From: Escherichia phage PGT2
DNA: 42,686 nt
Strand: one strand, 5' to 3'
Sequence record: NC_047890.1
This document shows positions 657 to 42,250 of this stretch, piece after piece. The notes beneath the pieces were generated by a model. The model had not been told where the DNA came from and searched no databases. It saw only the letters and a program-made list of their open reading frames with translations. The translations under genes and the position numbers were made by a program. Within the stretch, counting starts at the first letter, position 1. The number at the start of each line of letters is the position of its first letter.

Positions 657-1047
657 TGTATCCGGGTATCATCCGCCGGCTGTGGTCCGGAACTGGTTAA
701 GGGATACTTTAAGGGATGAATCCAAGGGACTAGCCGATCAGCTTATTTGTAAGCCGTGGGCTGTCTGGTTAGTTTGGGCGCATGATGAGATAGATAGTAA
801 GCGGGTCAGTCTTCTGTGCTGTGTAGGGGAGCGGCAAGCCTTAACTATTATGGATAACGCGGCCCGGCTTGACGGGTATCTGTGCCGGCTGTATCAGTCC
901 GATGGCGATGCGGTCGATATTAGTCATCTGTCCGAGTATAAATCGGTGCATAACTGGACCGGATACTGGAAGCATGTACACGGTGAGGATATGCCGATGA
1001 CGATTAGTGATGACGGATTGAGAAAGCTGCGGGAGATGATAGCATGA
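607..1047 (+). CDS. Hypothetical early protein (146 aa); possibly the C-terminal part of a frameshifted product with ORF 453-656
   Basis: ATG at 607 follows a G5 run (598-602); frame is +1 relative to ORF 453 and overlaps its 3' end; a strong terminator follows the stop. Confidence 0.35.
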   Translation: MARPCRKYRRRALIGIDVSGYHPPAVVRNWLRDTLRDESKGLADQLICKPWAVWLVWAHDEIDSKRVSLLCCVGERQALTIMDNAARLDGYLCRLYQSDGDAVDISHLSEYKSVHNWTGYWKHVHGEDMPMTISDDGLRKLREMIA

Positions 1048-1051
1048 TGAT

Positions 1052-1088
1052 AAGGGGCGGGGAGTGTATCCTTGCCCCTTTCTTTTTG
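1052..1088 (+). terminator. Rho-independent terminator
   Basis: 12-bp stem aaggggcgggga / tccttgcccctt (two G-U pairs), loop gtgta, then tctttttgt. Confidence 0.6.
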
Positions 1089-1217
1089 TATTGTGGATCC
1101 CTGACGTTCTCCTGATCGGGCTTATGCACTCATGGCTGTGCGTTGGCTTGTCTTACGTGTGATTAGGTGTCTGGTGAGAACGTGGGAGATTATTTTCGAT
1201 TATTTTTAAAATATCGC

Positions 1218-1246
1218 TTGCATAGTTCGTGAGGAGGCTATATAGT
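1218..1246 (+). promoter_or_regulatory. Candidate sigma70 early promoter (TTGCAT-17-TATAGT) with AT-rich upstream region
   Basis: -35 ttgcat at 1218-1223, -10 tatagt at 1241-1246, preceded by tatttttaaaatat. Confidence 0.4.
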
Positions 1247-1442
1247 TAATTTCAACGGCGGGGTAGTGGGAAGACAAGCCGATAAAATAGGATTCCCTCC
1301 ACATGGTCAGTTACCATAGGTCATCCGAGACACCAAACGGAATAACTAACAAGTAGTAACACCGGGGCAAGGAGGCCGCCTCGAAAGAGGAAAGTAGCTG
1401 GTAATGGCGTATGAAGCATTACCCCGGTGAGAAAGAAAGAGA

Positions 1443-1471
1443 TTGACAAGTTCAGAAGTAAGCAGTAAGAT
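1443..1471 (+). promoter_or_regulatory. Candidate sigma70 early promoter (TTGACA-17-TAAGAT)
   Basis: Consensus -35 ttgaca at 1443-1448; -10 taagat at 1466-1471; shares the upstream 18-mer aagaaagagattgacaag with the promoter at 1639. Confidence 0.45.
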
Positions 1472-1638
1472 GTAAATCAAGCAGTACGGGAGGAGGCGCA
1501 ACGGAAGGCGCGACACGGCGGGGAGTGATACAAGGACGCGCCAAAGGGAGAACGGATAGGAACTGCGAACCCTTCCGGATACCCGCTACGGATAGCACAG
1601 TTTGCCGGAGTATGCAGACACGGTAAGCAAGAAAGAGA

Positions 1639-1667
1639 TTGACAAGCTGGACAAGTTACCCGATAAT
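1639..1667 (+). promoter_or_regulatory. Candidate sigma70 early promoter (TTGACA-17-GATAAT)
   Basis: Consensus -35 ttgaca at 1639-1644; -10 gataat at 1662-1667; an RBS and small ORF follow. Confidence 0.55.
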
Positions 1668-1698
1668 AAGCTCAACGAATCGCAACGAGGAGAGAGAA

Positions 1699-1857
1699 AT
1701 GACTTACTACGAATCAGCAGAGAACGAGATGATCACCGCAGCACGCGCAGAAAAAGAAGTGCGCCGCCACGGTTGCAGCGTAGCAGAATTTTACGCAGAC
1801 TGCGGTACTCATGAGGAGTACGACGCACAAGCTGTGTTAGAATGGTTAGGGTACTAA
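1699..1857 (+). CDS. Small acidic early protein (52 aa)
   Basis: ATG at 1699 preceded by SD aggagag; lies downstream of the promoter at 1639; 11 acidic versus 4 K/R residues. Confidence 0.45.
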   Translation: MTYYESAENEMITAARAEKEVRRHGCSVAEFYADCGTHEEYDAQAVLEWLGY

Positions 1858-1878
1858 CAGAAAGTTTGAAGAAATAGG

Positions 1879-1907
1879 TTGACAAGTTAAGCAGTAAGCA
1901 GTAACCT
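1879..1907 (+). promoter_or_regulatory. Candidate sigma70 early promoter (TTGACA-17-TAACCT, weak -10)
   Basis: -35 ttgaca at 1879-1884; the spacer carries two AAGCAGTA copies, paralogous to the promoter at 1443. Confidence 0.35.
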
Positions 1908-2122
1908 AGAAAGCAAGCAGTACAGCAGTATCACAGCAGCCTAGAATAGGTTGAGTCGCACTCGGTGTGAATAGCTGACCTGACAGCGATATGGTTCAGG
2001 GGGGCCGGAGGATAGACAGTGACGTCGCCAATAAGCCCAACAAACGAAAGGTTTGTTAGTGTATCCTCACAGTAGGGTACAGCAACAAACTAACCGTAAA
2101 CGCAACGTAAACGAGGCGCACC

Positions 2123-2362
2123 ATGACTACACGTACAGAATACAACGGACACAAAAACAAAACTCACTGGAATGTAAGCCTTTGGATTAATAACGATGAG
2201 GCACTTTACCAGTTGGCAAGAGAATTTATCAACGATAACAATAACCGTAATGATGCGGCCCGCGCTATGGCGTTATTTTTAGCACAGTTGGGACAAGATA
2301 AAACGCCGGACGGATTCAAATACAGCGCTACGGCGATCCGCGCCGCTATGGTTGAGATGTAA
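2123..2362 (+). CDS. Hypothetical early protein (79 aa)
   Basis: ATG with SD acgagg at 6-nt spacing; first of a run of tightly packed same-strand early ORFs. Confidence 0.55.
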   Translation: MTTRTEYNGHKNKTHWNVSLWINNDEALYQLAREFINDNNNRNDAARAMALFLAQLGQDKTPDGFKYSATAIRAAMVEM

Positions 2363-2373
2363 GGAGGCACAGC

Positions 2374-2640
2374 ATGAAACTTTCAAAACAGACCGCGACC
2401 GATATTAGAAGCGCACTCATTGGCAAGGACGTGCCAGCTATCGCAAAGGCTTATCAGGAAAAAGGTTTATCATTCACTCGCTTCATATGGGACGCGTATC
2501 ACTCTATCGGCCACGCTAAGACCAACGAGATACTGACAGCTAACAACAAGCTGACAGTTATTGGTGGCTATGTAACCGATATTAATGACAGCCATATTGA
2601 AACAATGCTAAAACTAGCGTTCAAAGATTGTAAGTTTTAA
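2374..2640 (+). CDS. Hypothetical early protein (88 aa)
   Basis: ATG preceded by strong SD aaggagg. Confidence 0.6.
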   Translation: MKLSKQTATDIRSALIGKDVPAIAKAYQEKGLSFTRFIWDAYHSIGHAKTNEILTANNKLTVIGGYVTDINDSHIETMLKLAFKDCKF

Positions 2641-2682
2641 GATAGCGGCATACAAATAAACGCAACGTAAATGAGGCGCACC

Positions 2683-3177
2683 ATGAAAGTATTAATTTCT
2701 GCATTCCGTAAAGAAAACGATCTGTTAACCCATATCAATAATCACGCGGAATTATTCGACCGCATCACCGCATTAGGATTGACGCCGCAGCCCGTCGATG
2801 GCGTGTGGAAAGGTGTATCGGAGTTTTCTTACATGGTACACGGTGTTACCACAGCGATGCTCAAAGCGTTTTATGCAATGGCCCGCGACTACAATCAGGA
2901 GGCTATCTTGCTTGTTGCTGATGATAACCGTGCCGCAGTAGTGCCCACCGATGGCCCGGTGATGGCCCCGATGATTGACGTTGGCGACTGGAGGGAAGTA
3001 AGCAAAGAGATCGCGATACAATTTGACGGATACACCAAGACACGCGACGGCCGCTATTTTGTCGCCGCCACTCGTGAGCAGTTCGGCCTCGCCACTCGTC
3101 GGCTGTTAGCCACACAGATGGGCGTAATCGCTGCTAACGAATATGCAGCACGTGTAAACGCAGTGGGAGGATTATAA
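2683..3177 (+). CDS. Hypothetical early protein (164 aa)
   Basis: Start at the second ATG (2683), chosen because the 28-nt block before it is 27/28 identical to the leader of ORF 2123; the provided ORF track begins at the in-frame ATG at 2671. Confidence 0.55.
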   Translation: MKVLISAFRKENDLLTHINNHAELFDRITALGLTPQPVDGVWKGVSEFSYMVHGVTTAMLKAFYAMARDYNQEAILLVADDNRAAVVPTDGPVMAPMIDVGDWREVSKEIAIQFDGYTKTRDGRYFVAATREQFGLATRRLLATQMGVIAANEYAARVNAVGGL

Positions 3178-3427: not shown

Positions 3428-3504
3428 ATCCGGGCCTATGCCGCGCACTCATGGGCGGCATACACACGCAGTCAGATCACTCCCATTAAATGAGGACACA
3501 GAGC

Positions 3505-3618
3505 ATGAACACAATAACATCCGGCCTTGCACTCATCGGCGCGATTATCGGCGTCGCTGTGTTTAACGCATTACCCTTGATTATTGGCGTGGCGGTCCTC
3601 AGTTGGTGGCTGTCATAA
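3505..3618 (+). CDS. Small hydrophobic peptide (37 aa), probable single-pass membrane protein
   Basis: ATG with SD gagga at 8-nt spacing; translation MNTITSGLALIGAIIGVAVFNALPLIIGVAVLSWWLS; below the 60-aa cutoff of the ORF track. Confidence 0.4.
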   Translation: MNTITSGLALIGAIIGVAVFNALPLIIGVAVLSWWLS

Positions 3619-4622: not shown

Positions 4623-5132
4623 ATGACAAGCATCAATCCGGTAGACCTGACCACTTTAGGCGCACGAGTAACCGACCCGGCACAGTTGACAGAAGGCCGC
4701 TGGTATGTGGTCCGCGTTAACTGTAGAGGCTATACCCCACTGGTACACGCCAAATACTTGGGTATGAAAGGGCGCGCCTCACATGCGTTTGAGGTGTGCG
4801 ATGAGGATCATCTCGCGTTAAAGCGTTCTCTGGGCCTCGCCAAGCGCATCCACCGCGACAACGGTAGTATCCGCTCAGGGAAGATTGATGGCGGCGGTAT
4901 CTGCGAGATATTCAAGTTTAAGCAGGCGACAGCTACCCGATCCAATGCGCCGCAGCCCACCGCAACCTTATCCACAGTGGACCAATTCAAATCAGAGATT
5001 GACGCGTTACGTGCCAAGGCTACACAGAAGCGCGACCAGATTGCTCAGCTCTCAGAAGAGATTGCCGGGATTAACATCGCTATCTACGACACACGCAAGA
5101 AACTCAAAGCCAGCTTAGAGGGTTACATCTAA
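4623..5132 (+). CDS. Hypothetical early protein (169 aa)
   Basis: ATG two bases after the upstream stop; long ORF in the gene-dense early block. Confidence 0.55.
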   Translation: MTSINPVDLTTLGARVTDPAQLTEGRWYVVRVNCRGYTPLVHAKYLGMKGRASHAFEVCDEDHLALKRSLGLAKRIHRDNGSIRSGKIDGGGICEIFKFKQATATRSNAPQPTATLSTVDQFKSEIDALRAKATQKRDQIAQLSEEIAGINIAIYDTRKKLKASLEGYI

Positions 5133-5150
5133 TGCTTGAAGGTGACAAAC

Positions 5151-5462
5151 ATGAAACCGAATCAAAAGAAAATCCCCGCGCTCCTGCTATGCTCAGTCGG
5201 CCTGTTATGGGCGGTGGCGGGGGTCAATCAGGCGTATGCTTCGACCCATATGCAGCGGGAGACAGTGACGTTCAACAGTCTTTTCAAGTCGGATGGGATG
5301 ACTATCAGTGAGTATTGTTCTGTGACATTGCAGGGCAATACACAGATTGTTGAAGCATCCTGCTACGGCATACTGAAACCCACAGTGACGGACTTACAAC
5401 GCCGCTATCCACTCGTGGCCTTCCACGTGATTATCAATGGCGAGTCACTGAACACTATTTGA
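5151..5462 (+). CDS. Predicted secreted/periplasmic early protein (103 aa) with N-terminal signal peptide
   Basis: N-terminus MKPNQKKIPALLLCSVGLLWAVAGVNQAYAS has a basic n-region, hydrophobic core and AxA-like cleavage site; two Cys in the mature part; ORF track start 5136 is a TTG. Confidence 0.55.
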   Translation: MKPNQKKIPALLLCSVGLLWAVAGVNQAYASTHMQRETVTFNSLFKSDGMTISEYCSVTLQGNTQIVEASCYGILKPTVTDLQRRYPLVAFHVIINGESLNTI

Positions 5463-5964: not shown

Positions 5965-6270
5965 ATGAGCGAACGTATCTGCGTACCATATGCACGTAAA
6001 GGCAATCCAGACGTACACACTATCGTAATCCCAGCAGGCTTTATCAGTCTGGAAGACCTCTTGTCCCATGTCGGCTTCCAGCTTGGCATGGGCGACCAGT
6101 TGCTGGATGAGATTAACGGCCTTCTGGCACAGGAATACACAGCAGGCAAGCGCGCGCTGGCTGAAGTCCTGAGCCGGGCTACTCATAGCGCGACGTACAC
6201 TCCCAACATGGAGGATGCGCACCGTATCCTGACGGCTGAAGAATTGGGGTATGCAAATGACCGTGAGTAA
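5965..6270 (+). CDS. Hypothetical early protein (101 aa)
   Basis: ATG preceded by acgaggc-type SD. Confidence 0.55.
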   Translation: MSERICVPYARKGNPDVHTIVIPAGFISLEDLLSHVGFQLGMGDQLLDEINGLLAQEYTAGKRALAEVLSRATHSATYTPNMEDAHRILTAEELGYANDRE

Positions 6271-6361
6271 AGCCATTGGCTGGCTGATAGCCTACGCAGT
6301 GTTTTCTATAGTCGCCAACATCATCGGCGGCATCTCGTTAATTTTGTTCCTGCTCAAGTGA
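6251..6361 (+). CDS. Small hydrophobic peptide (36 aa), possible membrane protein
   Basis: Translation MQMTVSKAIGWLIAYAVFSIVANIIGGISLILFLLK; overlaps the end of ORF 5965 in another frame; weak RBS. Confidence 0.3.
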   Translation: MQMTVSKAIGWLIAYAVFSIVANIIGGISLILFLLK

Positions 6362-6369
6362 GGTAATTA

Positions 6370-6645
6370 ATGTCTGAGTTCCAGAAGAAACTTAAACAGG
6401 CGTTTTACGCTAACTTCTCCCGGCAGCGGACCGATAAAGAGGGTGTTATCTCTTACCGGACCTATTTTGGCACGTCCCTACCAACCACGCGGTACGTAGA
6501 GACGCTGGTGGATGAGAAGAAGTCTGCGACGGAAGGCGTGGACACAGTGGCGATTGTTGATCAGATTCGTGTGCACCATTTCAACGAAATCATGGGATAC
6601 ATCGACAACGAACTGCGCAAGGTTCTCAAATTGCAGGAGGGATAA
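6370..6645 (+). CDS. Hypothetical protein (91 aa)
   Basis: ATG preceded by SD gtgaggtaa; immediately upstream of primase. Confidence 0.55.
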   Translation: MSEFQKKLKQAFYANFSRQRTDKEGVISYRTYFGTSLPTTRYVETLVDEKKSATEGVDTVAIVDQIRVHHFNEIMGYIDNELRKVLKLQEG

Positions 6646-7466
6646 TGAACTACCGTGATTCCGATTGGTATTTGGCTATAAAAGACCATCCGGTCGGTAC
6701 TCGGCTGCGTATGGCACACGATGGCTGCTCCACGAGTGAGGCACTCATCGTCACAAAACAGGATTCCGGGGTAAGCGCGTATTGCTTCCGTTGCAAATGG
6801 AACGGATTCGTTGGCGCGCCTCCTGAATCGTTGGCCCAAAAGTTAGAGCGTAAATCTCGTGAGAAGCTCGCCAGCAAGGTGATGAAGGATAGTAAGGCGT
6901 TACCATCCCCCAAGTGCGAAAACATCGCTGAGTGGCCGCTAGAAGCGCGGATTTGGCTCTATAAAGCTGGACTTAATAACCATGACATATCTGAAGCTGG
7001 TATTTATTATCATGGAGGCAGTAATCGTGTGGTCATCCCTATATTTGATGGTGACGCGCTGGTGTATTGGCAAGCCCGTGGATTTGACCCTGAAGCGCCT
7101 AAGTACCTCAATCCGTCGGTGGTGGACCGGACTGCTCTTGTCGCCAACTGGTACGGCTCTGAAAGATGCCTTGTTCTTACAGAGGACTGGCTATCAGGCT
7201 ACCGGGTACATCGGGCCACAGGCTTCCAAGTCTATGCCCTCCTTGGGACAACACTCACGGACGCAATCGCGGCCCAAATCGTCTACAACCGTGTACCAGT
7301 GGCCATATGGCTCGACCCGGATTCGGCGGGCCAGACTGCGGCGCGGAAGATTATTGCTAAACTCAGTGCGCTGAACCACCCGGTTAAAAACATCGTCACT
7401 GAGCGGGATCCTAAACTTTACAGTGACGCAGAAATCCGGGAGGTGTTACGATGCGACCCACAGTGA
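6645..7466 (+). CDS. DNA primase (zinc-binding and TOPRIM domains)
   Basis: Cys cluster HDGC...CFRC near the N-terminus; TOPRIM-like LVLTEDWLSGYR and IWLDPDSAGQTAARK; strong SD aggaggg. Confidence 0.8.
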   Translation: MNYRDSDWYLAIKDHPVGTRLRMAHDGCSTSEALIVTKQDSGVSAYCFRCKWNGFVGAPPESLAQKLERKSREKLASKVMKDSKALPSPKCENIAEWPLEARIWLYKAGLNNHDISEAGIYYHGGSNRVVIPIFDGDALVYWQARGFDPEAPKYLNPSVVDRTALVANWYGSERCLVLTEDWLSGYRVHRATGFQVYALLGTTLTDAIAAQIVYNRVPVAIWLDPDSAGQTAARKIIAKLSALNHPVKNIVTERDPKLYSDAEIREVLRCDPQ

Positions 7467-7852
7467 TGGAGAGTTGTTGCATCTGCCATACGCAGAAAGG
7501 TCCCTATAATCAGGCAGGCCGTGCAACATACAAGGGCCGGATGGTGGGGTTACACAGGCTTATCTTCTTTAAGGAGTTCGGTTACTGGCCGGAAGTTGTC
7601 CTGCACCTCTGCGACAACCAGCGCTGTATAAATCCTGAACATCTGGTAGGAGGTACACAGGCAGACAACATCCGAGATGCAGTAGAGAAAGGGCGGTGGG
7701 TAAGAAATTTCCCTAATAAGTTATCCGCAGACACTGTTCGGGCCATACGAAGCGCGGTAGGCACAAACAAGCAGATAGCACAACAGTTTAATATAGACCC
7801 GGCGCATGTAAGCCGTATCAAAAATGGTATTGCTTATAAGGAGGTCACATAA
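7451..7852 (+). CDS. HNH homing endonuclease
   Basis: HNH core LHRLIF...HLCDNQRCINPEHL...N with a C-terminal helix-turn-helix-like segment; sits between primase and helicase. Confidence 0.7.
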   Translation: MRPTVMESCCICHTQKGPYNQAGRATYKGRMVGLHRLIFFKEFGYWPEVVLHLCDNQRCINPEHLVGGTQADNIRDAVEKGRWVRNFPNKLSADTVRAIRSAVGTNKQIAQQFNIDPAHVSRIKNGIAYKEVT

Positions 7853-7923
7853 GCCTCGATAGTGAATTTCTCCGTAGTATCCGACACCGCTCTAAGTTCA
7901 AAGAGCGTATAGGAACTACCCCC

Positions 7924-9132
7924 TTGTATTTGTTCGAAGAGAAGACACGCGACCTGATAAAGCTCATGTCACGTTATTTTAAGACTTACAAGGCGGCAGA
8001 CGTCATCCTAAAAGATGACTTCATAACTTGGCTGAATGAACTAAAGGGAGACAAACTAACAGAGTCTGACAGCATACTGTTTCAGGCACTCATGGAAGAT
8101 TTTGAGTATGACCTGTCTGCCGCCGCCGAGCAGTTCCTGACCGAGCGTTTGCAGGAATCCGATTTAGTCTACAAAACCGCAGACCTGATTGAGAAATGGT
8201 CGAACGGTGATGAGATTGAAATCATTGAGCAAATGAAAATCGTCACCGACAAAGCGGCATTTGGCCGTGCTGACCGGGACGGTATTAAAGTAGTCACAGA
8301 GTCGATTGAGGAGATTCTGGAGCACGCCGGGAGCAAGTGGGGATTCGAGTGGTCATTGCCAATATTAGCTAAGGCCATGCGACCCGCACAGCCGGGAGAC
8401 ATGATTCTCATAGCTGCCCGACCGGACCAAGGGAAGACTACATTCATCGGTAACATTGTCCGGCCTTGGCTGGCACAACTGGATGAAATATTCCCCGATG
8501 AAGAACGCTGCATTCTCTGGCTCAATAACGAGGGACCGGGTACTCGTATCAAGCTCCGAAATTACCAATCGGCCCTCGGCCTGACTATCCCAGAAGTGGA
8601 CCAGATGGCTCATACTCGTGGGATGCTGGACGAGGAATACAGGAAGGTGGTAGCCAATGCCGACCGCCTTATTATCCTCGACGTCCACGGCAAGAACACG
8701 GCACAGATTGAGCGGAAGATTGCTGAATTGAAGCCGGGTGTCATTGTCTGGGACATGCTGGATAAGGTGAAGTATGTTACAGAAGACGCTTTTAGGAATA
8801 CACGTACGGATGAGTATCTTGAAGGCTTGTACTCGTGGGTACGAGAATCCGGTGTCATATATGACTGCGTTAACGTCGTATCAACCCAGTTATCCGGTGA
8901 TGCTGAGAACATGCAGTATCCGCACCTCGGAATGCTCAAAGACTCAAAAACGGGCAAACAGGGTACGGCTGATGCCATCATTACGTTCGGGTCGGTTGAC
9001 ACTTACCCCCGTACACGATTCATTGGTCTTACTAAAAATAAGCTCAATATGGGCCGCGCTACGAGTCGCCTAGGCGAAGTCGTATTCGACGGTGCCCGTG
9101 GCTTAATCACTATGCCAGAGGTAGAGAAATGA
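7924..9132 (+). CDS. Replicative DNA helicase (DnaB/T7 gp4 helicase-domain type)
   Basis: Walker A ARPDQGKTT; the frame is closed upstream so the start is TTG 7924 or the internal ATG at 7966. Confidence 0.8.
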   Translation: MYLFEEKTRDLIKLMSRYFKTYKAADVILKDDFITWLNELKGDKLTESDSILFQALMEDFEYDLSAAAEQFLTERLQESDLVYKTADLIEKWSNGDEIEIIEQMKIVTDKAAFGRADRDGIKVVTESIEEILEHAGSKWGFEWSLPILAKAMRPAQPGDMILIAARPDQGKTTFIGNIVRPWLAQLDEIFPDEERCILWLNNEGPGTRIKLRNYQSALGLTIPEVDQMAHTRGMLDEEYRKVVANADRLIILDVHGKNTAQIERKIAELKPGVIVWDMLDKVKYVTEDAFRNTRTDEYLEGLYSWVRESGVIYDCVNVVSTQLSGDAENMQYPHLGMLKDSKTGKQGTADAIITFGSVDTYPRTRFIGLTKNKLNMGRATSRLGEVVFDGARGLITMPEVEK

Positions 9133-16332: not shown

Positions 16333-17052
16333 ATGTTGTTAATGCTCTCTGGCGCGATTGGCGCTGGCAAAGATACCTTCGGTGAGTTCCTGTACGACTC
16401 ATTCGACAAGTTCGGCTACAGCGTGGAAGTGGTGAAGTTTGCCGACCCCATTCGTGAAGCTGCATTTAAGCTCGGATTCAATCCAGATGACCGGGCAACC
16501 AAGGAAGTCCCTGCAATACGCCATTATAAACTCTCAGAACTTGATGAGGCCATTTTTACTACTCATACCTGCCTGACACCTTACGAGCGCCGAATGGTCG
16601 CTGTACGAGTTCACCAGAGATTAATTAACATTCGCAAGGAGAAACATGATGGCATCTACAAGCCTGTCGTCAGTACGCGAGAATTTATGCAGGTCGTCGG
16701 TGGGACTGTACGAGACGCTAAAGAAGATTATTACATCCAGCACATGCTTCTCAATACACCAGAATCACGCGTTAACATCTGCACTGATACTCGGTTCATC
16801 AACGAGCAGCGAATTGGGGATTATTCGGTCTACGTTGAGCGCCCAAACAACCCGTTGGCGGTTCATACCCGCGACGCGTCGGAAGCAGCACAAGCGTTGC
16901 TCCGGGGGGCGGCGAAGAAAGTAATCCTGAACAACAGCACTCTGGATAATCTGGCTGAAGAAGCCGATTACGTGGCTACAACATTAATTTCAAAAGGGTA
17001 TTGTGATGACGCAGTTAAAGACGCAGGCGGAACTGGAATCTTTATCGAGTGA
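16333..17052 (+). CDS. P-loop deoxynucleoside monophosphate kinase-like protein
   Basis: N-terminal P-loop MLLMLSGAIGAGKDT resembles T4 dNMP kinase MKLIFLSGVKRSGKDT; strong SD tgagga. Confidence 0.6.
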   Translation: MLLMLSGAIGAGKDTFGEFLYDSFDKFGYSVEVVKFADPIREAAFKLGFNPDDRATKEVPAIRHYKLSELDEAIFTTHTCLTPYERRMVAVRVHQRLINIRKEKHDGIYKPVVSTREFMQVVGGTVRDAKEDYYIQHMLLNTPESRVNICTDTRFINEQRIGDYSVYVERPNNPLAVHTRDASEAAQALLRGAAKKVILNNSTLDNLAEEADYVATTLISKGYCDDAVKDAGGTGIFIE

Positions 17053-18976
17053 GCGCGGTCTTGCCAAGCTGATGGCCGAGTGTGAGCAGGCTGAATCAGC
17101 GGGGCGTGCATCCGGCGCGTTTTATGCCAAGCAGTTGTTAGAGCGTTTTGTTAACCGTATGGCCGAACGTATTGACCACGAGATGGCGAATCCGGGTGCT
17201 GGCCGCGCGAAAGCGCATAAGAAACTGGTCGCTGTGTTTGACTCCAAAGTCACTGCGTTTATTTCTGTATCAACCACATTGAACATGCTGATGGTCAACG
17301 AGCAGACACCGGGCACCAGCCTTAGTCGCGCCCTCGGCAATGCAATGTATAACGAACTGTTCTGTACCACATTCGACGATGCCAACCCGGACCTGTTTCA
17401 CACCATCTGCAAGGACTTGGATAAGCGCCAGAGCAAATCCAGCCGCCACCGCATGACGGTACTGAAGAATCAGGCAGCGAAGAAGGGTATCGCGTGGGAG
17501 AACTGGACCGTCACCGAAATCCTTCAGGTCGGTGAGTGGTGTCTGGATAATCTGGTGTCAGTTGGTCTGTGCGAAACGCATACCGAGGTGTCTCGCGGTA
17601 AGGCGAAGATGTACGTGGAACTGTCCGACGAGGCGCTGGGAATGATTGAGGATACCAAACGTCTGGTGTCCTTCTTCCGGCCCCAGCGCCTCCCGTTCGT
17701 AGAGAAGCCTCTGGACTGGACCGGGATTGTTGGTGGTGGCTACCATACTGCTCGTATGCAGAGTACGATGCCTCGTTGCATCAAAGCCAGCCCGACCCAG
17801 ATGGATGTACTCATAAAGCACCGTGACGACTACAAGGATACGGTGGTGGCGTGCATTAACACTCTGCAATCGGTAGAGTGGCGTATCAACAAGCGTATTC
17901 TGGAAGTGCAGCAGCAGATGTTCCGAGGCTTTGAGCCGAAGAACAAGCCTGATGCTCTGGAGTGTCATAGCAAGGACGTTGAAGAGTGGACCGAGGCAGA
18001 TAAATCTCTACACAGCCACTGGAAGAAGGAAATGGCTCGCTGGTACACAGAGCAGCGTGCAGAGCGTTATGCCGCTTCACGACATGCCTACACGTTGTCA
18101 GTGGCACGAGAGTTCGCTGACTACCCGCGTATCTGGTTCATGTACTTCGCCGACTGGCGCGGGCGTTATTACCCGGCCACCACAGGCATCTCGCCGCAGG
18201 GGACCGACATCTCTAAATCCATGCTGGAGTTCGCCAATGGCAAGCCCATCTCTGACCCAATCGCAGAACAGTTCTTCTTCCTCCTTGGTTCAACTAAATT
18301 CGGATTCGACAAAGGCTCTATATCCGAACGAGTTCAGTGGGTTCACAAGAATCACGACCTTATCTTGGCGTGTGCCGACGAACCGCTACTACATACTGAT
18401 TTCTGGTACAGAGAAGCAGATAAGAAGACCCGCTACCAATTTCTGGCATGGTGTTTTGAATATGCTGAATACACGCGGTTCCCAGCTGGATTTGTATCAC
18501 GACTTCCGGTGTCTCTTGATGGCACATGTAATGGCCTACAACACTATTCGGCGATGCTACGAGATTCGGTTGGTGCTAAGGCTACCAACCTGTTACCTGC
18601 TAACCGACCAAACGATATTTACGCGCAAGTCGCAGGCGTTGTCACCAACCTTCTTGAAAGCATGTCACCTGCCGACTTCCCGGCACTGACACGCGAATCT
18701 AAGCCTCTCAGCGTCTATGAGGTGGACTTCTTCCGTAGGGCATGGTTACACCACGGTATCAGCCGTAGCCTCGTTAAACGGTGCGTTATGACGTTACCTT
18801 ACGGGTCCAAGAAGTTCAGCATGGGTCGCTTCATCAAAGGCGACTACATGATGGACATTCACCCGGAAGAGTTCGACACCGACGACTACACCGACGCAAA
18901 GTATGTTCCCGCCAGACCAGAGTTCGGTGACCTCGATTTAGAGCAGGTCAATCACTCCGAATACTTCTTCCTGTAG
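17006..18976 (+). CDS. T7-like single-subunit RNA polymerase, apparently lacking the C-terminal ~190 aa (motif C and C-terminus)
   Basis: PLDWTGIVGGGY, DWRGRYY...PQGTD, FLAWCFEYA, LDGTCNGLQHYSAMLRD (motif A) and VMTLPYGSKKF (motif B) align with T7 RNAP; the ORF stops about 50 residues after motif B. Confidence 0.85.
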   Translation: MTQLKTQAELESLSSERGLAKLMAECEQAESAGRASGAFYAKQLLERFVNRMAERIDHEMANPGAGRAKAHKKLVAVFDSKVTAFISVSTTLNMLMVNEQTPGTSLSRALGNAMYNELFCTTFDDANPDLFHTICKDLDKRQSKSSRHRMTVLKNQAAKKGIAWENWTVTEILQVGEWCLDNLVSVGLCETHTEVSRGKAKMYVELSDEALGMIEDTKRLVSFFRPQRLPFVEKPLDWTGIVGGGYHTARMQSTMPRCIKASPTQMDVLIKHRDDYKDTVVACINTLQSVEWRINKRILEVQQQMFRGFEPKNKPDALECHSKDVEEWTEADKSLHSHWKKEMARWYTEQRAERYAASRHAYTLSVAREFADYPRIWFMYFADWRGRYYPATTGISPQGTDISKSMLEFANGKPISDPIAEQFFFLLGSTKFGFDKGSISERVQWVHKNHDLILACADEPLLHTDFWYREADKKTRYQFLAWCFEYAEYTRFPAGFVSRLPVSLDGTCNGLQHYSAMLRDSVGAKATNLLPANRPNDIYAQVAGVVTNLLESMSPADFPALTRESKPLSVYEVDFFRRAWLHHGISRSLVKRCVMTLPYGSKKFSMGRFIKGDYMMDIHPEEFDTDDYTDAKYVPARPEFGDLDLEQVNHSEYFFL

Positions 18977-38897: not shown

Positions 38898-40696
38898 GAG
38901 AATCAGCAGAAAGAGAAGAACAGCGGTTACTTGAACTCGCAGCACTGCGGGACATGTACCCCACGTTCCTACCGTTTCTGATTGATTTCATGGTGATGCT
39001 CGGATTCTTCGTCACCCCGGTACAGAAGCTCATTGCTCAATTCCTTGAGTACGGGCCTCTGTACCGGATGGTGCAGGCCCAGCGTGGCCAAGCGAAGACT
39101 ACCATCACAGCCGCATATGCAATCTGGCGACTTATCCACGATACCAACCTTGCCGTGTTAATCGTCTCGGCAGGGGGCAAGCAGGCGAACGAGATTTCAA
39201 CCCTCATCGTCCGCTCATTCAAAACGTGGGATAAGCTGGCCTGCATGTGTCCTGACGCCTCTATGGGCGACCGTGAGTCAGTCGAAGCATTCGACGTTCA
39301 CTACAACTTAAAGAGGCTGAATAAATCTCCGTCCGTGGCCTGTACTGGCATCACGGGTAACTTGCAGGGTAAACGTGCGGGTCTGCTTATCGCGGACGAC
39401 GTTGAGTCCCAGAAGAACTCCCTGACTGCGGTCATGCGTGAGAACCTTCTGAACCTGACTCGTGACTTTACCTCCATCTGCTCCACCGGGGATATTATCT
39501 ACCTCGGTACACCGCAGACTACAGAATCAATTTATAACACCCTGCCGGGGCGTGGCTTTACTGTCCGCATCTGGCCGGGACGTTTCCCTACCGCAGAGCA
39601 GGTGGAAGCCTACGGCGACCAGCTATGCCCTGTCTTTAGGATGAAGATTGCTTCACGCCCTGACCTGACTACAGGCTACGGGCCGGATGGGCTTCAGGGT
39701 GCTCCGGTTGACCCTGTAATCCTCGGCGAAGCCTTCCTGAACAAGAAAGAGATTGACCAAGGAACTGCATACTTCCAGTTGCAGCACATGCTTCAGACGC
39801 GCCTGATGGATGCTATGCGCAAGCCATTACACGCAGAGAAGCTGATTGTGGCCCAACTGCCGAAGCGTGACGGTCTGTTCCCTATCACCATTACGCGAGA
39901 AATCTCTGTACAAGCCTACATGCGCCGAAACGTCCTGAGCAAGCCTCTGGTATTCGGTGTGCCCGGTAGCGTGTCTAAGGACGTCGCTACGCTTCAGGGC
40001 GTATGCTTCTACATCGACCCTGCTGGTGGTGGTAAGAACGCGGATGAAACTGCATTCGCTTGTACCGGGTTCCTGAACTCCAATATCTTCCTACTGGATT
40101 GGGGCGGCTTACCGGGCGGATATGCCCCGGATGTTATGTCCGCTCTCGCTCAACGTGTGTTTGATGTACGGCCCAATGTTGTCAAAATCGAAAAGAACTT
40201 CGGTTACGGCGCATTCCGCGAAGTATGGTTGCCGTACCTCTGGGCCATTTATGATAAAGCTGGTGTTAACCGTCCCGGCGTAGAGGACGATATGGTACAC
40301 GGCCAGAAGGAGAAGCGAATCATTGATACGCTTGAGCCTGTAATGGGTCGTGGCTCGCTTATTGTTGACGAGCGTCTCATCAAGGAAGACGAAGACCAAA
40401 CCATGCGGTACAGCGCACAAATGCGTGTGACGTACTCCGGGTTCCTACAGATGGTTAATATCTCCTACGACAAAGATGCGTTGGTGCATGATGACCGACT
40501 GGATGCTTTGGAAGGAGCGGTTCGTCATTGGCAGGATTGGCTTGCCAAGAACCAAGAGAAGGCCATTCAGGCTCAACGGAAACGTGAGTTCGAAGAGTGG
40601 CAGAAAGACCCTATGATGAAGAAGCGTTGTCAGTCCGTGAAGGAATACAATGCTGGTCGTCGTGGTAAAACCATGTTTGATAAGAGAAAACGCTAA
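38888..40696 (+). CDS. Terminase large subunit
   Basis: LAVLIVSAGGKQ, SPSVACTGITGNLQGKRAGLLIADDVESQKNS, IIYLGTPQT and ALVHDDRLDALEGA match the corresponding T7 gp19 segments. Confidence 0.9.
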   Translation: MALRESAEREEQRLLELAALRDMYPTFLPFLIDFMVMLGFFVTPVQKLIAQFLEYGPLYRMVQAQRGQAKTTITAAYAIWRLIHDTNLAVLIVSAGGKQANEISTLIVRSFKTWDKLACMCPDASMGDRESVEAFDVHYNLKRLNKSPSVACTGITGNLQGKRAGLLIADDVESQKNSLTAVMRENLLNLTRDFTSICSTGDIIYLGTPQTTESIYNTLPGRGFTVRIWPGRFPTAEQVEAYGDQLCPVFRMKIASRPDLTTGYGPDGLQGAPVDPVILGEAFLNKKEIDQGTAYFQLQHMLQTRLMDAMRKPLHAEKLIVAQLPKRDGLFPITITREISVQAYMRRNVLSKPLVFGVPGSVSKDVATLQGVCFYIDPAGGGKNADETAFACTGFLNSNIFLLDWGGLPGGYAPDVMSALAQRVFDVRPNVVKIEKNFGYGAFREVWLPYLWAIYDKAGVNRPGVEDDMVHGQKEKRIIDTLEPVMGRGSLIVDERLIKEDEDQTMRYSAQMRVTYSGFLQMVNISYDKDALVHDDRLDALEGAVRHWQDWLAKNQEKAIQAQRKREFEEWQKDPMMKKRCQSVKEYNAGRRGKTMFDKRKR

Positions 40697-40920
40697 TGAC
40701 TATTGCTGCACAACTCCCAGACCCGAAGCTCGACGTTAAGGGCGACCGACTGCGTTTCCTGTTGGCCGCTTGTATCAGCGAGTGTAATATCCAAGCAGAC
40801 AACGGTGCGTATGATAAAGGCACCAGCTTCAAAGCCCTGCTTACTGCCGCTGCTGCACTCGTGAAGGTAGCTCCGGTAGAACCTGAAGACCCGGAAGACC
40901 CTGAAAACCCGGGAGAATAA
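40696..40920 (+). CDS. Hypothetical protein (74 aa)
   Basis: ATG overlapping the terminase stop; acidic Pro/Glu-rich C-terminus. Confidence 0.45.
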   Translation: MTIAAQLPDPKLDVKGDRLRFLLAACISECNIQADNGAYDKGTSFKALLTAAAALVKVAPVEPEDPEDPENPGE

Positions 40921-40957
40921 TACAATTGGCCAAGGACGGCTATTGAGGAACCTATTT

Positions 40958-41245
40958 ATGCGTATCGACGACATCTGTTCACCCGGTTTTGTACCTAACT
41001 CCCACCGCCTTCGTCAGGAGACTGTCCGGGCTATTGCTTTCTGTGAAACCATAGGAAGCGCTGAGAAGGCCGTAGAGCTACAAAAATACTTTCGTGAGGC
41101 TATCGAATACCTTGACCGAGAAATCGTCTCCAGCGGCTTGCCAGAGAGCGAGAAGCCTATTGTGGATGCTGATGCTGTGTCACCATTCGCTGAGGAAGAA
41201 GTTGTGGCCGAACCGAAACCTAAAGCCAAAGGAGGCAAGAAGTGA
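40958..41245 (+). CDS. Hypothetical protein (95 aa)
   Basis: ATG at 40958 with SD gaggaa at 8-nt spacing (ORF track start 40943 is a TTG). Confidence 0.5.
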   Translation: MRIDDICSPGFVPNSHRLRQETVRAIAFCETIGSAEKAVELQKYFREAIEYLDREIVSSGLPESEKPIVDADAVSPFAEEEVVAEPKPKAKGGKK

Positions 41246-41694
41246 ATCTGACCGCAGCGGAGAAGTTAGTTCGACATTTTGAGGGTCTGAAGTTGGAATC
41301 GTACCTGTGTCCTGCTGGTATATGGACTATCGGGTACGGGCAGACCAAGGGTATTAAGAAAGGCATGGTGTGGACCAAGGCTCAGGCCGAGGCAGATATG
41401 TCTGCCACTGTCCGGCGCTTTGCCGAAGAAGTACGTCAACTGGTCCGCAAGGATACGACCGACGCTGAACTGAGCGCATTCACATCTCTGGCCTATAACA
41501 TCGGTACTCCGAACTTTAAGACGTCCTCTGCTCTGCGTTGGCATAATGCCCGTGAGTCCGCGTCCAAGGTATGTGCTGGTATCCGTATGTGGAACAAGGC
41601 CACCGTCAATGGCAAGAAGATTATCCTGAAAGGTCTGGTACGTCGCCGAGAGGCTGAATGCTCCGTATATACAACTGGAGACTTTAATGAATAA
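41242..41694 (+). CDS. Endolysin, phage lysozyme family (GH24 / T4-lysozyme-like)
   Basis: Motif EGLKLESYLCPAGIWTIGYGQT (Glu-8aa-Cys-5aa-Thr arrangement); GTG start with SD ggagg at 6-nt spacing; no N-terminal hydrophobic segment. Confidence 0.75.
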   Translation: MNLTAAEKLVRHFEGLKLESYLCPAGIWTIGYGQTKGIKKGMVWTKAQAEADMSATVRRFAEEVRQLVRKDTTDAELSAFTSLAYNIGTPNFKTSSALRWHNARESASKVCAGIRMWNKATVNGKKIILKGLVRRREAECSVYTTGDFNE

Positions 41695-41857
41695 ATTTAA
41701 GCAATATCTGGGTGCCGCATGGGATTTCACCAAGGAACATGGTGTTACTATCCTGCGTGGTGTGGCTGTCCTCCTTGTAGGTCGTAAGGTTGGTCGCGTT
41801 GCCAACCAGTCCGCCGATGTACTTGATACGGTCATCAAAGGGACTAAGAAGAATTAA
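41687..41857 (+). CDS. Small protein (56 aa) with one short hydrophobic segment; possible lysis accessory protein
   Basis: ATG overlaps the endolysin stop; translation MNKFKQYLGAAWDFTKEHGVTILRGVAVLLVGRKVGRVANQSADVLDTVIKGTKKN; below the 60-aa ORF cutoff. Confidence 0.3.
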   Translation: MNKFKQYLGAAWDFTKEHGVTILRGVAVLLVGRKVGRVANQSADVLDTVIKGTKKN

Positions 41858-41866
41858 AGGATAGCC

Positions 41867-42250
41867 ATGTTCGAAGGCACCGGGAACTACGGTTCCCTTG
41901 TGACCACCCTCCTTACGGGAGCAGTGGCGGCTCAAACCTCTTATCAGGTATCCCGTATAGTCACACATGATTCTCTGTTATTAGTTGGCATCCTCTGCGT
42001 CATCGGTATCGTGGTAGGTCTGGGTCATGCTCTCTCAAGCAAGTCCCCTCTCCCATTCCGCCGTATCGTAGGCAAGGTGCTTATGTCTACTGGCGTGGCC
42101 GTTACAGCCGCTGCTGTTTATTACTTCAAACCAAGTACCGACCCGTTAGTCGTCATTGCCATTGGCGCTGGGTTAAGCGTCATGGGTTCTGGCTGGCTGG
42201 AAGAGTTCGTCCGTAACAGAACAGGAACCAAGAAGGATGATGGTAGTTAA
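41867..42250 (+). CDS. Multi-pass membrane protein, putative holin
   Basis: Three to four hydrophobic segments and a charged C-terminal tail EEFVRNRTGTKKDDGS; SD aagga at 6-nt spacing; adjacent to endolysin. Confidence 0.55.
   Translation: MFEGTGNYGSLVTTLLTGAVAAQTSYQVSRIVTHDSLLLVGILCVIGIVVGLGHALSSKSPLPFRRIVGKVLMSTGVAVTAAAVYYFKPSTDPLVVIAIGAGLSVMGSGWLEEFVRNRTGTKKDDGS

Follow-up and report, generated by a model that had tools for sequence, protein, structure and literature searches.

A probable unannotated gene for a small single-helix membrane peptide between gp14 and gp15 of Escherichia phage PGT2

Introduction

Does the 99-nucleotide (nt) interval between genes gp14 and gp15 of Escherichia phage PGT2 hide a gene? 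The stretch of DNA analysed here, referred to as the window, comprises the whole genome of this phage (42,686 bp; Autographiviridae, Ermolevavirus; record NC_047890.1). The two flanking open reading frames (ORFs) carry the consecutive locus tags PGT2_g00014 and PGT2_g00015, and no gene is annotated in PGT2 between them. The original prediction, made from the letters alone, proposed a small hydrophobic ORF of 36 amino acids (aa) at 6251-6361 that overlaps the end of the ORF starting at 5965. The coordinates, the overlap and the quoted hydrophobic stretch are all present in the window; the overlap with gp14 (5965..6270) is 20 nt, and the small ORF lies in frame +1 relative to gp14. Deposited proteins include neither the 36-aa product nor a 34-aa form that starts at a second in-frame ATG. 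The small ORF is likewise unannotated in the record of phage phiKT, which is 96% identical to the window at this locus.

We conclude that the interval very probably contains a real, unannotated PGT2 gene for a peptide of 34-36 aa forming a single transmembrane (TM) helix. To the whole statement, including a mechanism that is explicitly tentative, we assign a probability of about 0.75. Taken alone, the first level, i.e., that this is a real membrane-peptide gene, is highly probable. What the sequences show is a conserved ORF for a hydrophobic helix, maintained by selection and located in the early/replication block between gp14 and the gene that follows. It is very probable from the comparison of sequences that the peptide has been kept under purifying selection in six related phage lineages.

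The small ORF follows gp14 in six lineages

Relatives of the locus were gathered via gp15 cluster members, gp14 homologs and a gp14 profile search. One further relative, the metagenome contig L040 (related loci are numbered with the prefix L), came from a degenerate DNA pattern for the peptide core. In all of the about 35 related loci, which belong to six lineages with gp14 identities from 96% to 45%, a small hydrophobic ORF is found directly after the gp14 homolog. The conservation analysis that had been proposed as a check of the ORF shows it to be intact in every relative recovered.

The PGT2-type group contains 26 loci. These are L025-L028 and 22 others, including the window and L002, the window's own copy in IMG/VR; the 22 represent 10 distinct nucleotide sequences. 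The ORF is uninterrupted in each of the 26 loci, always with a length of exactly 111 nt, and all amino-acid changes are conservative (T/S, V/L, I/V, S/A, L/M, L/F). The five divergent lineages, whose gp14 proteins are 45-61% identical, also have a small hydrophobic ORF right after gp14, see Table 1, and an in-frame ATG or GTG start is present in every lineage.

When 50,697 phage records were searched by tblastn and blastn, using the peptide and both neighbours as queries, phiKT was the sole relative. Scanned with gp15 as a peptide pattern, IMG/VR gave the window itself and phiKT and nothing else, and the degenerate DNA pattern for FSxxANIIGGI matched the window alone in IMG/VR. The same DNA pattern gave 15 matches in the JGI metagenomes, which equals the expected number by a hand estimate from the pattern degeneracy and an assumed collection size. 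One match is the true homolog L040; the other 14 arose by chance in long ORFs that are unrelated.

The junction after the small ORF (window 6362..6369) is a mosaic or insertion hot spot, seen in L006-L012, L015, L019-L021, L023, L026-L030 and L040. The cargo found here between the small ORF and gp15 is either a 153-aa HNH endonuclease or unrelated ORFs of 80-106 aa. Inserted genes are always located just after the stop codon of the small ORF and never inside it, and the small ORF always stays with gp14.

Selection acts on the reading frame

The original prediction had named beforehand the observation that would count most heavily against it, a lack of selection on this frame in relatives. The test was run and selection is present across the six lineages. 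All figures for selection are from a gap-free core of 20 codons.

Across four lineages the variable sites fall on codon positions 1/2/3 as 11/3/16 (chi-square P=0.014). By the Nei-Gojobori method, the proportion of synonymous differences between lineages (pS) is 0.52-0.93, which is near saturation, while the proportion of non-synonymous differences (pN) is 0.10-0.47. Pooled pN/pS is 0.42 in the frame of the ORF; the two remaining sense frames give 0.84 and 1.73. The corresponding rate ratio after Jukes-Cantor correction (dN/dS) is 0.08-0.20 for the three comparisons of the window with L029, the window with L032 and L029 with L032. Fisher tests of synonymous versus non-synonymous changes give P=8e-5 for the window and L029, and P=7e-5 for L049 and L052. 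Further, a conserved serine is encoded by TCT or TCC in most lineages and by AGC in L052, i.e., the codon family has switched and the residue has been kept.

Every other frame, sense or antisense, contains a stop codon in at least one lineage. Only the frame of the small ORF is open in all six, for which the chance is about 3e-5 in independent random sequence. This bears directly on the simplest alternative, namely that the interval is a non-coding spacer containing a promoter, a terminator or a small RNA, and that the ORF is there by chance. Such a spacer would agree with the lack of annotation in PGT2 and phiKT, and there is a weak sigma-70-like match at 6284..6312 (score 9/12). However, the -10 hexamer of this match, TATAGT, is TGTAGT in most relatives, no terminator-like site is found on this strand and there is no Rfam match. 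The RNA at 6240-6385 folds no better than its shuffles (z=+1.17), and the substitutions are patterned as expected in a coding frame.

It also speaks for chance that spurious small hydrophobic ORFs occur in the PGT2 genome. Of 353 ORFs of 28-70 aa in the six frames of the window, six reach 2.5 or more in their best Kyte-Doolittle window of 19 residues. Of these six, the strongest of their kind, four are artefacts that lie out of frame or antisense within long genes. Shuffled sequences were tried as a null for the hydrophobicity and rejected as uninformative, since they give zero such ORFs and the real alternative frames of long genes give four. Size and hydrophobicity alone are thus not strong evidence for the ORF; it is the comparative evidence that puts it beyond chance. 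The non-coding spacer is already strongly disfavoured and we consider it very improbable.

Some observations weigh against the preferred reading of a selected membrane-peptide gene. Within the PGT2-type group only a weak signal is seen (codon positions 8/2/7, P=0.16; dN/dS about 0.5), and the case therefore depends on the deeper comparisons. These comparisons in turn use only 20 alignable codons and six lineages, with synonymous sites near saturation. With regard to the partner binding proposed below, gp14 gives no functional clue: its AlphaFold2 model is weak, with a predicted local distance difference test (pLDDT) score of 60, and its Foldseek matches in the PDB all have E>3 and carry no meaning. 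Two additional points concern the proposed contact surface of the helix and are given with it below.

Start codon and probable coupling to gp14

The ribosome-binding site had been described as weak. This is correct for ATG 6251 but not for the in-frame ATG 6257. Duplex energies with the anti-Shine-Dalgarno (anti-SD) sequence were compared with those of 23 long genes in the window, which have a median of -6.0 kcal/mol, and with a background mean of -2.7. The energy for ATG 6251 is -2.0 kcal/mol, at the level of the background, while for ATG 6257 it is -6.0 kcal/mol, identical to that of the median long gene.

The start is probably ATG 6257, giving 34 aa, rather than ATG 6251. The reason is that ATG 6251 is replaced by ACG in L004 and L005, a change that is synonymous in gp14 (TAT to TAC), while ATG 6257 is invariant throughout the PGT2-type group and has the better Shine-Dalgarno (SD) element. 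In close relatives the Gly codon of this SD-like element varies (GGT/GGC/GGA), and the anti-SD energy falls to -4.0. Two independent gene callers have reported the gene, one with the 34-aa product (P0001 in ENA) and one with the 36-aa product (L018). Most gene callers left the interval empty, as a gap of 98-115 nt.

In every lineage the small ORF begins before gp14 has ended. The two share 14 or 20 nt in the PGT2-type group, and in the others the overlap reads GTGA, GTGATTAG or ATGGGCGTTGA. The SDs of the distant lineages are no better than background (-1.5 to -3.9 kcal/mol). Judged from the gene arrangement, the position of the start at the gp14 end and the weak SDs of the distant lineages would fit translational coupling to gp14.

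The downstream end is equally compact. The hexamer TGAGGT, which combines the small-ORF stop codon with the SD for the following gene, is present in all PGT2-type loci whatever gene comes next (gp15, the HNH endonuclease or other ORFs), this gene starting 7-9 nt later. In the distant lineages an SD, GGAGG, lies within the last codons of the small ORF, which is overlapped by the next gene.

From this organization it can be speculated that the ORF is only a relay, traversed by ribosomes to couple gp14 with the downstream gene, and that its peptide product is without function. The start inside the gp14 end, the stop that in every lineage is joined to, or overlaps, the SD or start of whatever gene follows, and the weak SDs of the distant lineages would all agree with this. 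However, an open frame would suffice for a relay, yet the amino acids are conserved (pN/pS 0.16-0.5 at saturated synonymous sites) and the switch between serine codon families keeps the residue. The core FSxxANI(I/V)GGI is invariant in five of the six lineages, and the hydrophobic single-helix character is retained even in the most divergent one, L050. Strong SDs are, moreover, present at the downstream genes themselves (-8.9 for gp15). A relay without a functional product is therefore improbable in our view, somewhat less so than the non-coding spacer.

The same overlap raises the question whether the hydrophobic segment could be a C-terminal extension of gp14, reached by programmed frameshifting and giving a membrane-anchored gp14 isoform. 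The ORF does overlap the gp14 end and always accompanies gp14. The frame relation, however, varies: it is +1 in the PGT2-type group (6251-5965=286) and -1 in L029 (1803-1501=302), and in L049 and L050 the two ORFs overlap in yet other ways. Fusion of the helix to gp14 by a conserved programmed frameshift is therefore excluded. Neither a slippery heptamer nor a stimulatory structure is evident, and in-frame start codons are present in all lineages. Of all explanations considered here, this is the one to which we give the least credence, practically none.

The product is predicted to be a single membrane helix

The best 19-aa Kyte-Doolittle window of the peptide scores 2.51, with values of 2.46-2.65 in three lineages, and the grand average of hydropathy is 1.76. 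AlphaFold2 predicts one uninterrupted helix covering residues 5-35 with a mean pLDDT of 90. In most lineages a Lys or Arg stands before the helix, so that an N-in/C-out topology is predicted. The proposal of a small single-TM peptide gene is thus supported both by purifying selection in the frame and by a predicted hydrophobic single helix. The peptide fits the class of small single-pass membrane proteins (at most 50 aa) by its length, 34-36 aa here and 37-45 aa in relatives, and also by its own start codon, its single helix of bilayer length and the constraint on its amino acids.

In an alignment of all lineages (A4), Tyr15, Ser19 and Gly26 are invariant, and F18, A22, N23 and G27 are kept in five of the six lineages. 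A stripe with the spacing i, i+4, i+8 and i+12 is made up of residues 15, 19, 23 and 27; it reads Tyr-Ser-Asn-Gly, or Tyr-Ser-Ser-Ser in L050, and A22 and G26 adjoin it. An Asn in the middle of the bilayer and a small-xxx-small spacing are well-known drivers of the association between TM helices, and it is because of these two features that we propose the stripe as a contact surface. Two observations speak against it. The invariant residues are not significantly clustered on one helical face (permutation P=0.41), and Asn23 is Ser in the L050 lineage. Given the clustering result, the contact surface is therefore kept as a proposal and no defined interface is claimed.

The same features could alternatively serve self-association. 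The peptide might act on the bilayer itself, forming a homo-oligomer via its Asn and Gly-Gly motif and thereby a small pore or another membrane-perturbing assembly, comparable to viroporins, pinholins or type I toxins, with a partial early depolarisation or permeabilisation of the inner membrane as the result. In size and hydrophobicity the peptide is similar to type I toxins and pinholin-like peptides, and a mid-membrane Asn with a small-xxx-small pattern (A22-G26, G27) is generally known to favour the self-association of TM helices. It is also of relevance that phiKT-type phages already use an unconventional membrane-active peptide, the gp28 disruptin. Against a pore, the gene belongs to the early/replication block and is separated from the lysis cassette (41242..42250) by about 35 kb, and an early depolarisation would harm the energy supply that the phage needs. 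No match to a holin or toxin family is found. The charged C-terminal tail typical of holins is lacking, as the C-terminus has a single Lys (Gly-Gly or uncharged residues in relatives), and there is neither an antisense-RNA-like structure nor a conserved antisense promoter. We find a pore-forming peptide unlikely, though less so than the relay.

A family without known relatives

For the search of a large protein database the peptide was padded with six native in-frame upstream residues. A profile hidden Markov model of the peptide, searched against 1.84 billion (1.84e9) representative proteins, found only P0001 of its own lineage. The best PHROGs matches (E 0.047-0.5) are driven by composition, so that no significant family was obtained; the best NCBIfam match has E 0.19, and no match was found in Pfam or among PDB sequences, nor in Rfam at E≤1. 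The neighbour gp14 also belongs to no Pfam, PHROG or NCBIfam family.

The peptide is a new orphan family within the generic class of small single-pass membrane proteins. In the sequences collected here this family appears restricted so far to Ermolevavirus-like coliphages, always paired with gp14. The ORF is in itself an object of an expected kind, since phage genomes commonly contain small hydrophobic ORFs. What is gained is a sound correction of the annotation, with one gene more for the reference records of both PGT2 and phiKT, and a small new orphan family of membrane micropeptides.

Genomic neighbourhood

The small ORF is located in the early/DNA-metabolism block, upstream of the genes for primase, helicase, DNA polymerase and phage RNA polymerase. 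It shares the strand of its neighbours and is packed tightly against both. A DnaB-like helicase gene follows downstream of the primase and HNH endonuclease genes, and the phage RNA polymerase gene is found further downstream at about 17.0-19.0 kb. The features of the locus, the lysis genes and the small-ORF products of the divergent lineages are given in Table 1. The peptide is not part of the lysis cassette.

Table 1. Features of the small-ORF locus in the window, selected other genes of PGT2, and the corresponding products in divergent lineages (positions are those of the window).
Feature	Coordinates	Strand	Length	Description
Maximal ORF	6251..6361	+	36 aa	36 codons + TGA; product MQMTVSKAIGWLIAYAVFSIVANIIGGISLILFLLK
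Likely coding sequence	6257..6361	+	34 aa	MTVSKAIGWLIAYAVFSIVANIIGGISLILFLLK (starts MTVSKAIGW); ATG 6257 invariant, better SD, gene call P0001
SD-like element GGGGT	6246..6250	+		6 nt upstream of ATG 6257, within gp14 codons Leu-Gly-Tyr
Region coding for the TM helix	6272..6355	+		AIGWLIAYAVFSIVANIIGGISLILFLL; contains conserved core Y-x-x-F-S-x-x-A-N-I-I-G-G-I
TGAGGT	6359..6364	+		Small-ORF stop (TGA 6359-6361) fused to the SD of the next gene (GAGGT)
gp14	5965..6270	+	101 aa	PGT2_g00014, hypothetical protein, identical to YP_009795446
gp15	6370..6645	+	91 aa	PGT2_g00015, hypothetical protein; stop overlaps primase start at 6645
Primase	6645..7466	+		Toprim domains
HNH endonuclease	7451..7852	+		HNH_3 / zf-His_Me_endon homing endonuclease, Pfam E=1.4e-10
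Endolysin	41242..41694			Phage_lysozyme
Disruptin homolog	41687..41857		56 aa	Homolog of phiKT gp28
Holin	41867..42250			Phage_holin_3_2
Product in L029/L030/L031/L040			37 aa	VTFSAGNAMTALIVYLIFSFVANIIGGIAIICVIAGG
Product in L032				VISFGADVVVKLVIAYVVFSFIANIIGGIAIV...; truncated by contig end
Product in L049			41 aa	VISFGADVVVKLVIAYIVFSFIANIVGGIAIVTAILGGTCG
Product in L052			45 aa	VKDFSAATLIKLVVAYVVFSFIANIVGGIAIVAAVLGGSTCSLLN
Product in L050/L051			38 aa	MGVDTVIRFVIGYVIVSTVSSLIGSYFIIQAVIGAFHG

The HNH endonuclease ORF overlaps the end of the primase gene and lies between primase and helicase. At the equivalent site phiKT has no HNH endonuclease, its primase (2105..2923) being followed directly by the helicase at 3027. 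The phiKT GenBank record NC_019520 is permuted relative to the window, so the early genes at the left end of PGT2 correspond to the right end of the phiKT record: window 3300..3800 matches phiKT 40373..41463, and window 5400..7500 matches phiKT 695..2908. In phiKT no coding sequence is annotated in the approximately 2.1 kb upstream of the primase, yet all ORFs there are conserved with PGT2. As listed, the phage RNA polymerase ORF (17003..18976, +) starts with GTG and has just 657 aa, and its RNA_pol domain match is limited to model positions 16-183 of 448. This gene may be longer, split, or have another start than in the mechanical ORF list.

Additional small ORFs are found in the early region. 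One of them, at 3490..3618 (+), is a second small hydrophobic ORF of 42 aa, or 37 aa from its probable start ATG 3505 (the "3505 peptide"). It has a Kyte-Doolittle maximum of 2.55 and anti-SD energies of -6.0 for ATG 3505 versus +0.4 for 3490, and it is unrelated in sequence to the 6251 peptide. Another ORF, at 5136..5462 (+), encodes 108 aa, and its N-terminus from an internal ATG (MKPNQKKIPALLLCSVGLLWAVAGVNQAYA|S) resembles a Sec signal peptide. A distant homolog in L040 (9619..10053, -) also has a signal-peptide-like N-terminus. These N-termini suggest a secreted or periplasmic early protein; a search in NCBIfam gave no match for the 5136..5462 product.

The position between gp15 and primase varies among relatives. 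L049 has an extra small TM ORF of 40 aa here (4686..4808, +; MGASSNKAVATGIGLLGLYFFLVLAFWVGVIFAIWKFVFA), and in L040 a similar small TM ORF of 56 aa is found (7768..7938, -). In phiKT (L001) the position is occupied by a 55-aa Cys-rich ORF (1938..2105, +). The window has no ORF at this place, since gp15 ends where the primase begins, with stop and start overlapping at 6645.

A tentative model for the peptide

We suggest the following model. The small ORF would be translated from a polycistronic mRNA shared with its neighbours, mostly by ribosomes coming directly from the end of gp14 (termination-reinitiation coupling), aided in PGT2 by the moderate SD. The peptide would then enter the inner membrane of the host early in infection, as expected from its hydrophobicity and from known small single-pass proteins. 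Up to this point, i.e., for a peptide that is translated, largely coupled to gp14, and inserted into the inner membrane, the sequence data give the model good support.

The next step is more speculative. The polar and small stripe Tyr15-Ser19-Asn23-Gly27, with Ala22 and Gly26 alongside, could be a helix-helix contact surface, through which the peptide might bind a putative membrane partner, which could be a protein of the host inner membrane or one of the phage itself, in the service of host takeover or superinfection exclusion. This step is modelled on the bacterial proteins AcrZ, MgrB and MgtS and on T4 Imm in superinfection exclusion.

The model can be extended one step further. In this tentative and rather doubtful extension, gp14 and the micropeptide would form a conserved two-gene early module with the peptide as a specific membrane effector. 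Via the Tyr-Ser-Asn-Gly stripe, the peptide could block the entry of the genomes of superinfecting podophages at the inner membrane, analogous to Imm but with a single helix of 34 aa, or it could inhibit a host inner-membrane protein. If this were true, the family would represent a new family of phage-encoded "protein antibiotic" micropeptides. A conserved early phage micropeptide is, in any case, a compact candidate for host-takeover or exclusion functions.

Comparison with known systems

The peptide was compared with four groups of small proteins, and tested defining features of holins, of type I toxins and of Imm are each failed by it. It shares with holins, with pinholins and with the phiKT gp28 disruptin only the general class of small membrane-active phage peptides. 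Unlike holins, it is encoded far from the endolysin/disruptin/holin cassette, about 35 kb away, has no Pfam or PHROG holin match and lacks a charged C-terminal domain. The disruptin gp28 is a 56-aa peptide for outer-membrane disruption in the same phage genus (bioRxiv 10.1101/515445); unlike gp28, the PGT2 peptide is not amphipathic-cationic. Type I toxins (Hok, Ldr, Ibs, TisB, DinQ; 19-60 aa) are also hydrophobic single-helix peptides. In contrast to these, the peptide has no NCBIfam or Rfam match and neither an antisense RNA nor a structured leader (z=+1.17), and its gene would be co-translated within a phage operon.

T4 Imm has 83 aa and two TM segments. The PGT2 peptide differs from it in having one TM helix, no sequence similarity and no significant Pfam or PHROG match. 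Functionally, Imm is an early superinfection-exclusion membrane protein that binds the tape measure protein (bioRxiv 10.64898/2026.03.06.709160), and T4 Spackle is an early superinfection-exclusion protein of the periplasm (PMC7677548). By analogy, the PGT2 peptide is predicted to be, like Imm and Spackle, an early, envelope-located small protein of a virulent coliphage. The early region of PGT2 also resembles that of T4 in having several predicted envelope-directed products, namely the 6251 peptide, the TM micropeptide candidate at 3490..3618 and the protein from 5136..5462. The resemblance to Imm should be taken as a lead and not as a test.

The remaining comparison is with bacterial small single-pass membrane proteins that tune larger membrane proteins, i.e., AcrZ (acting on AcrB), MgrB (on PhoQ), MgtS and KdpF (reviewed in PMC12648545; AcrZ structure in PMC7267776). 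No sequence relationship to these exists, as searches of NCBIfam, Pfam and PDB were negative, and unlike them the peptide is encoded by a virulent phage, in a predicted early operon and with probable coupling to gp14. Membrane micropeptides are routinely missed in annotation, and in bacteria they are often specific regulators of membrane proteins. The PGT2 peptide has in common with AcrZ, MgrB, MgtS and KdpF a length of less than 50 aa, a single TM helix with nearly no soluble part, conserved polar and small residues in this helix, and the frequent lack of annotation. Its proposed mode of action would, by analogy, also be the same, the binding of the TM region of a partner protein.

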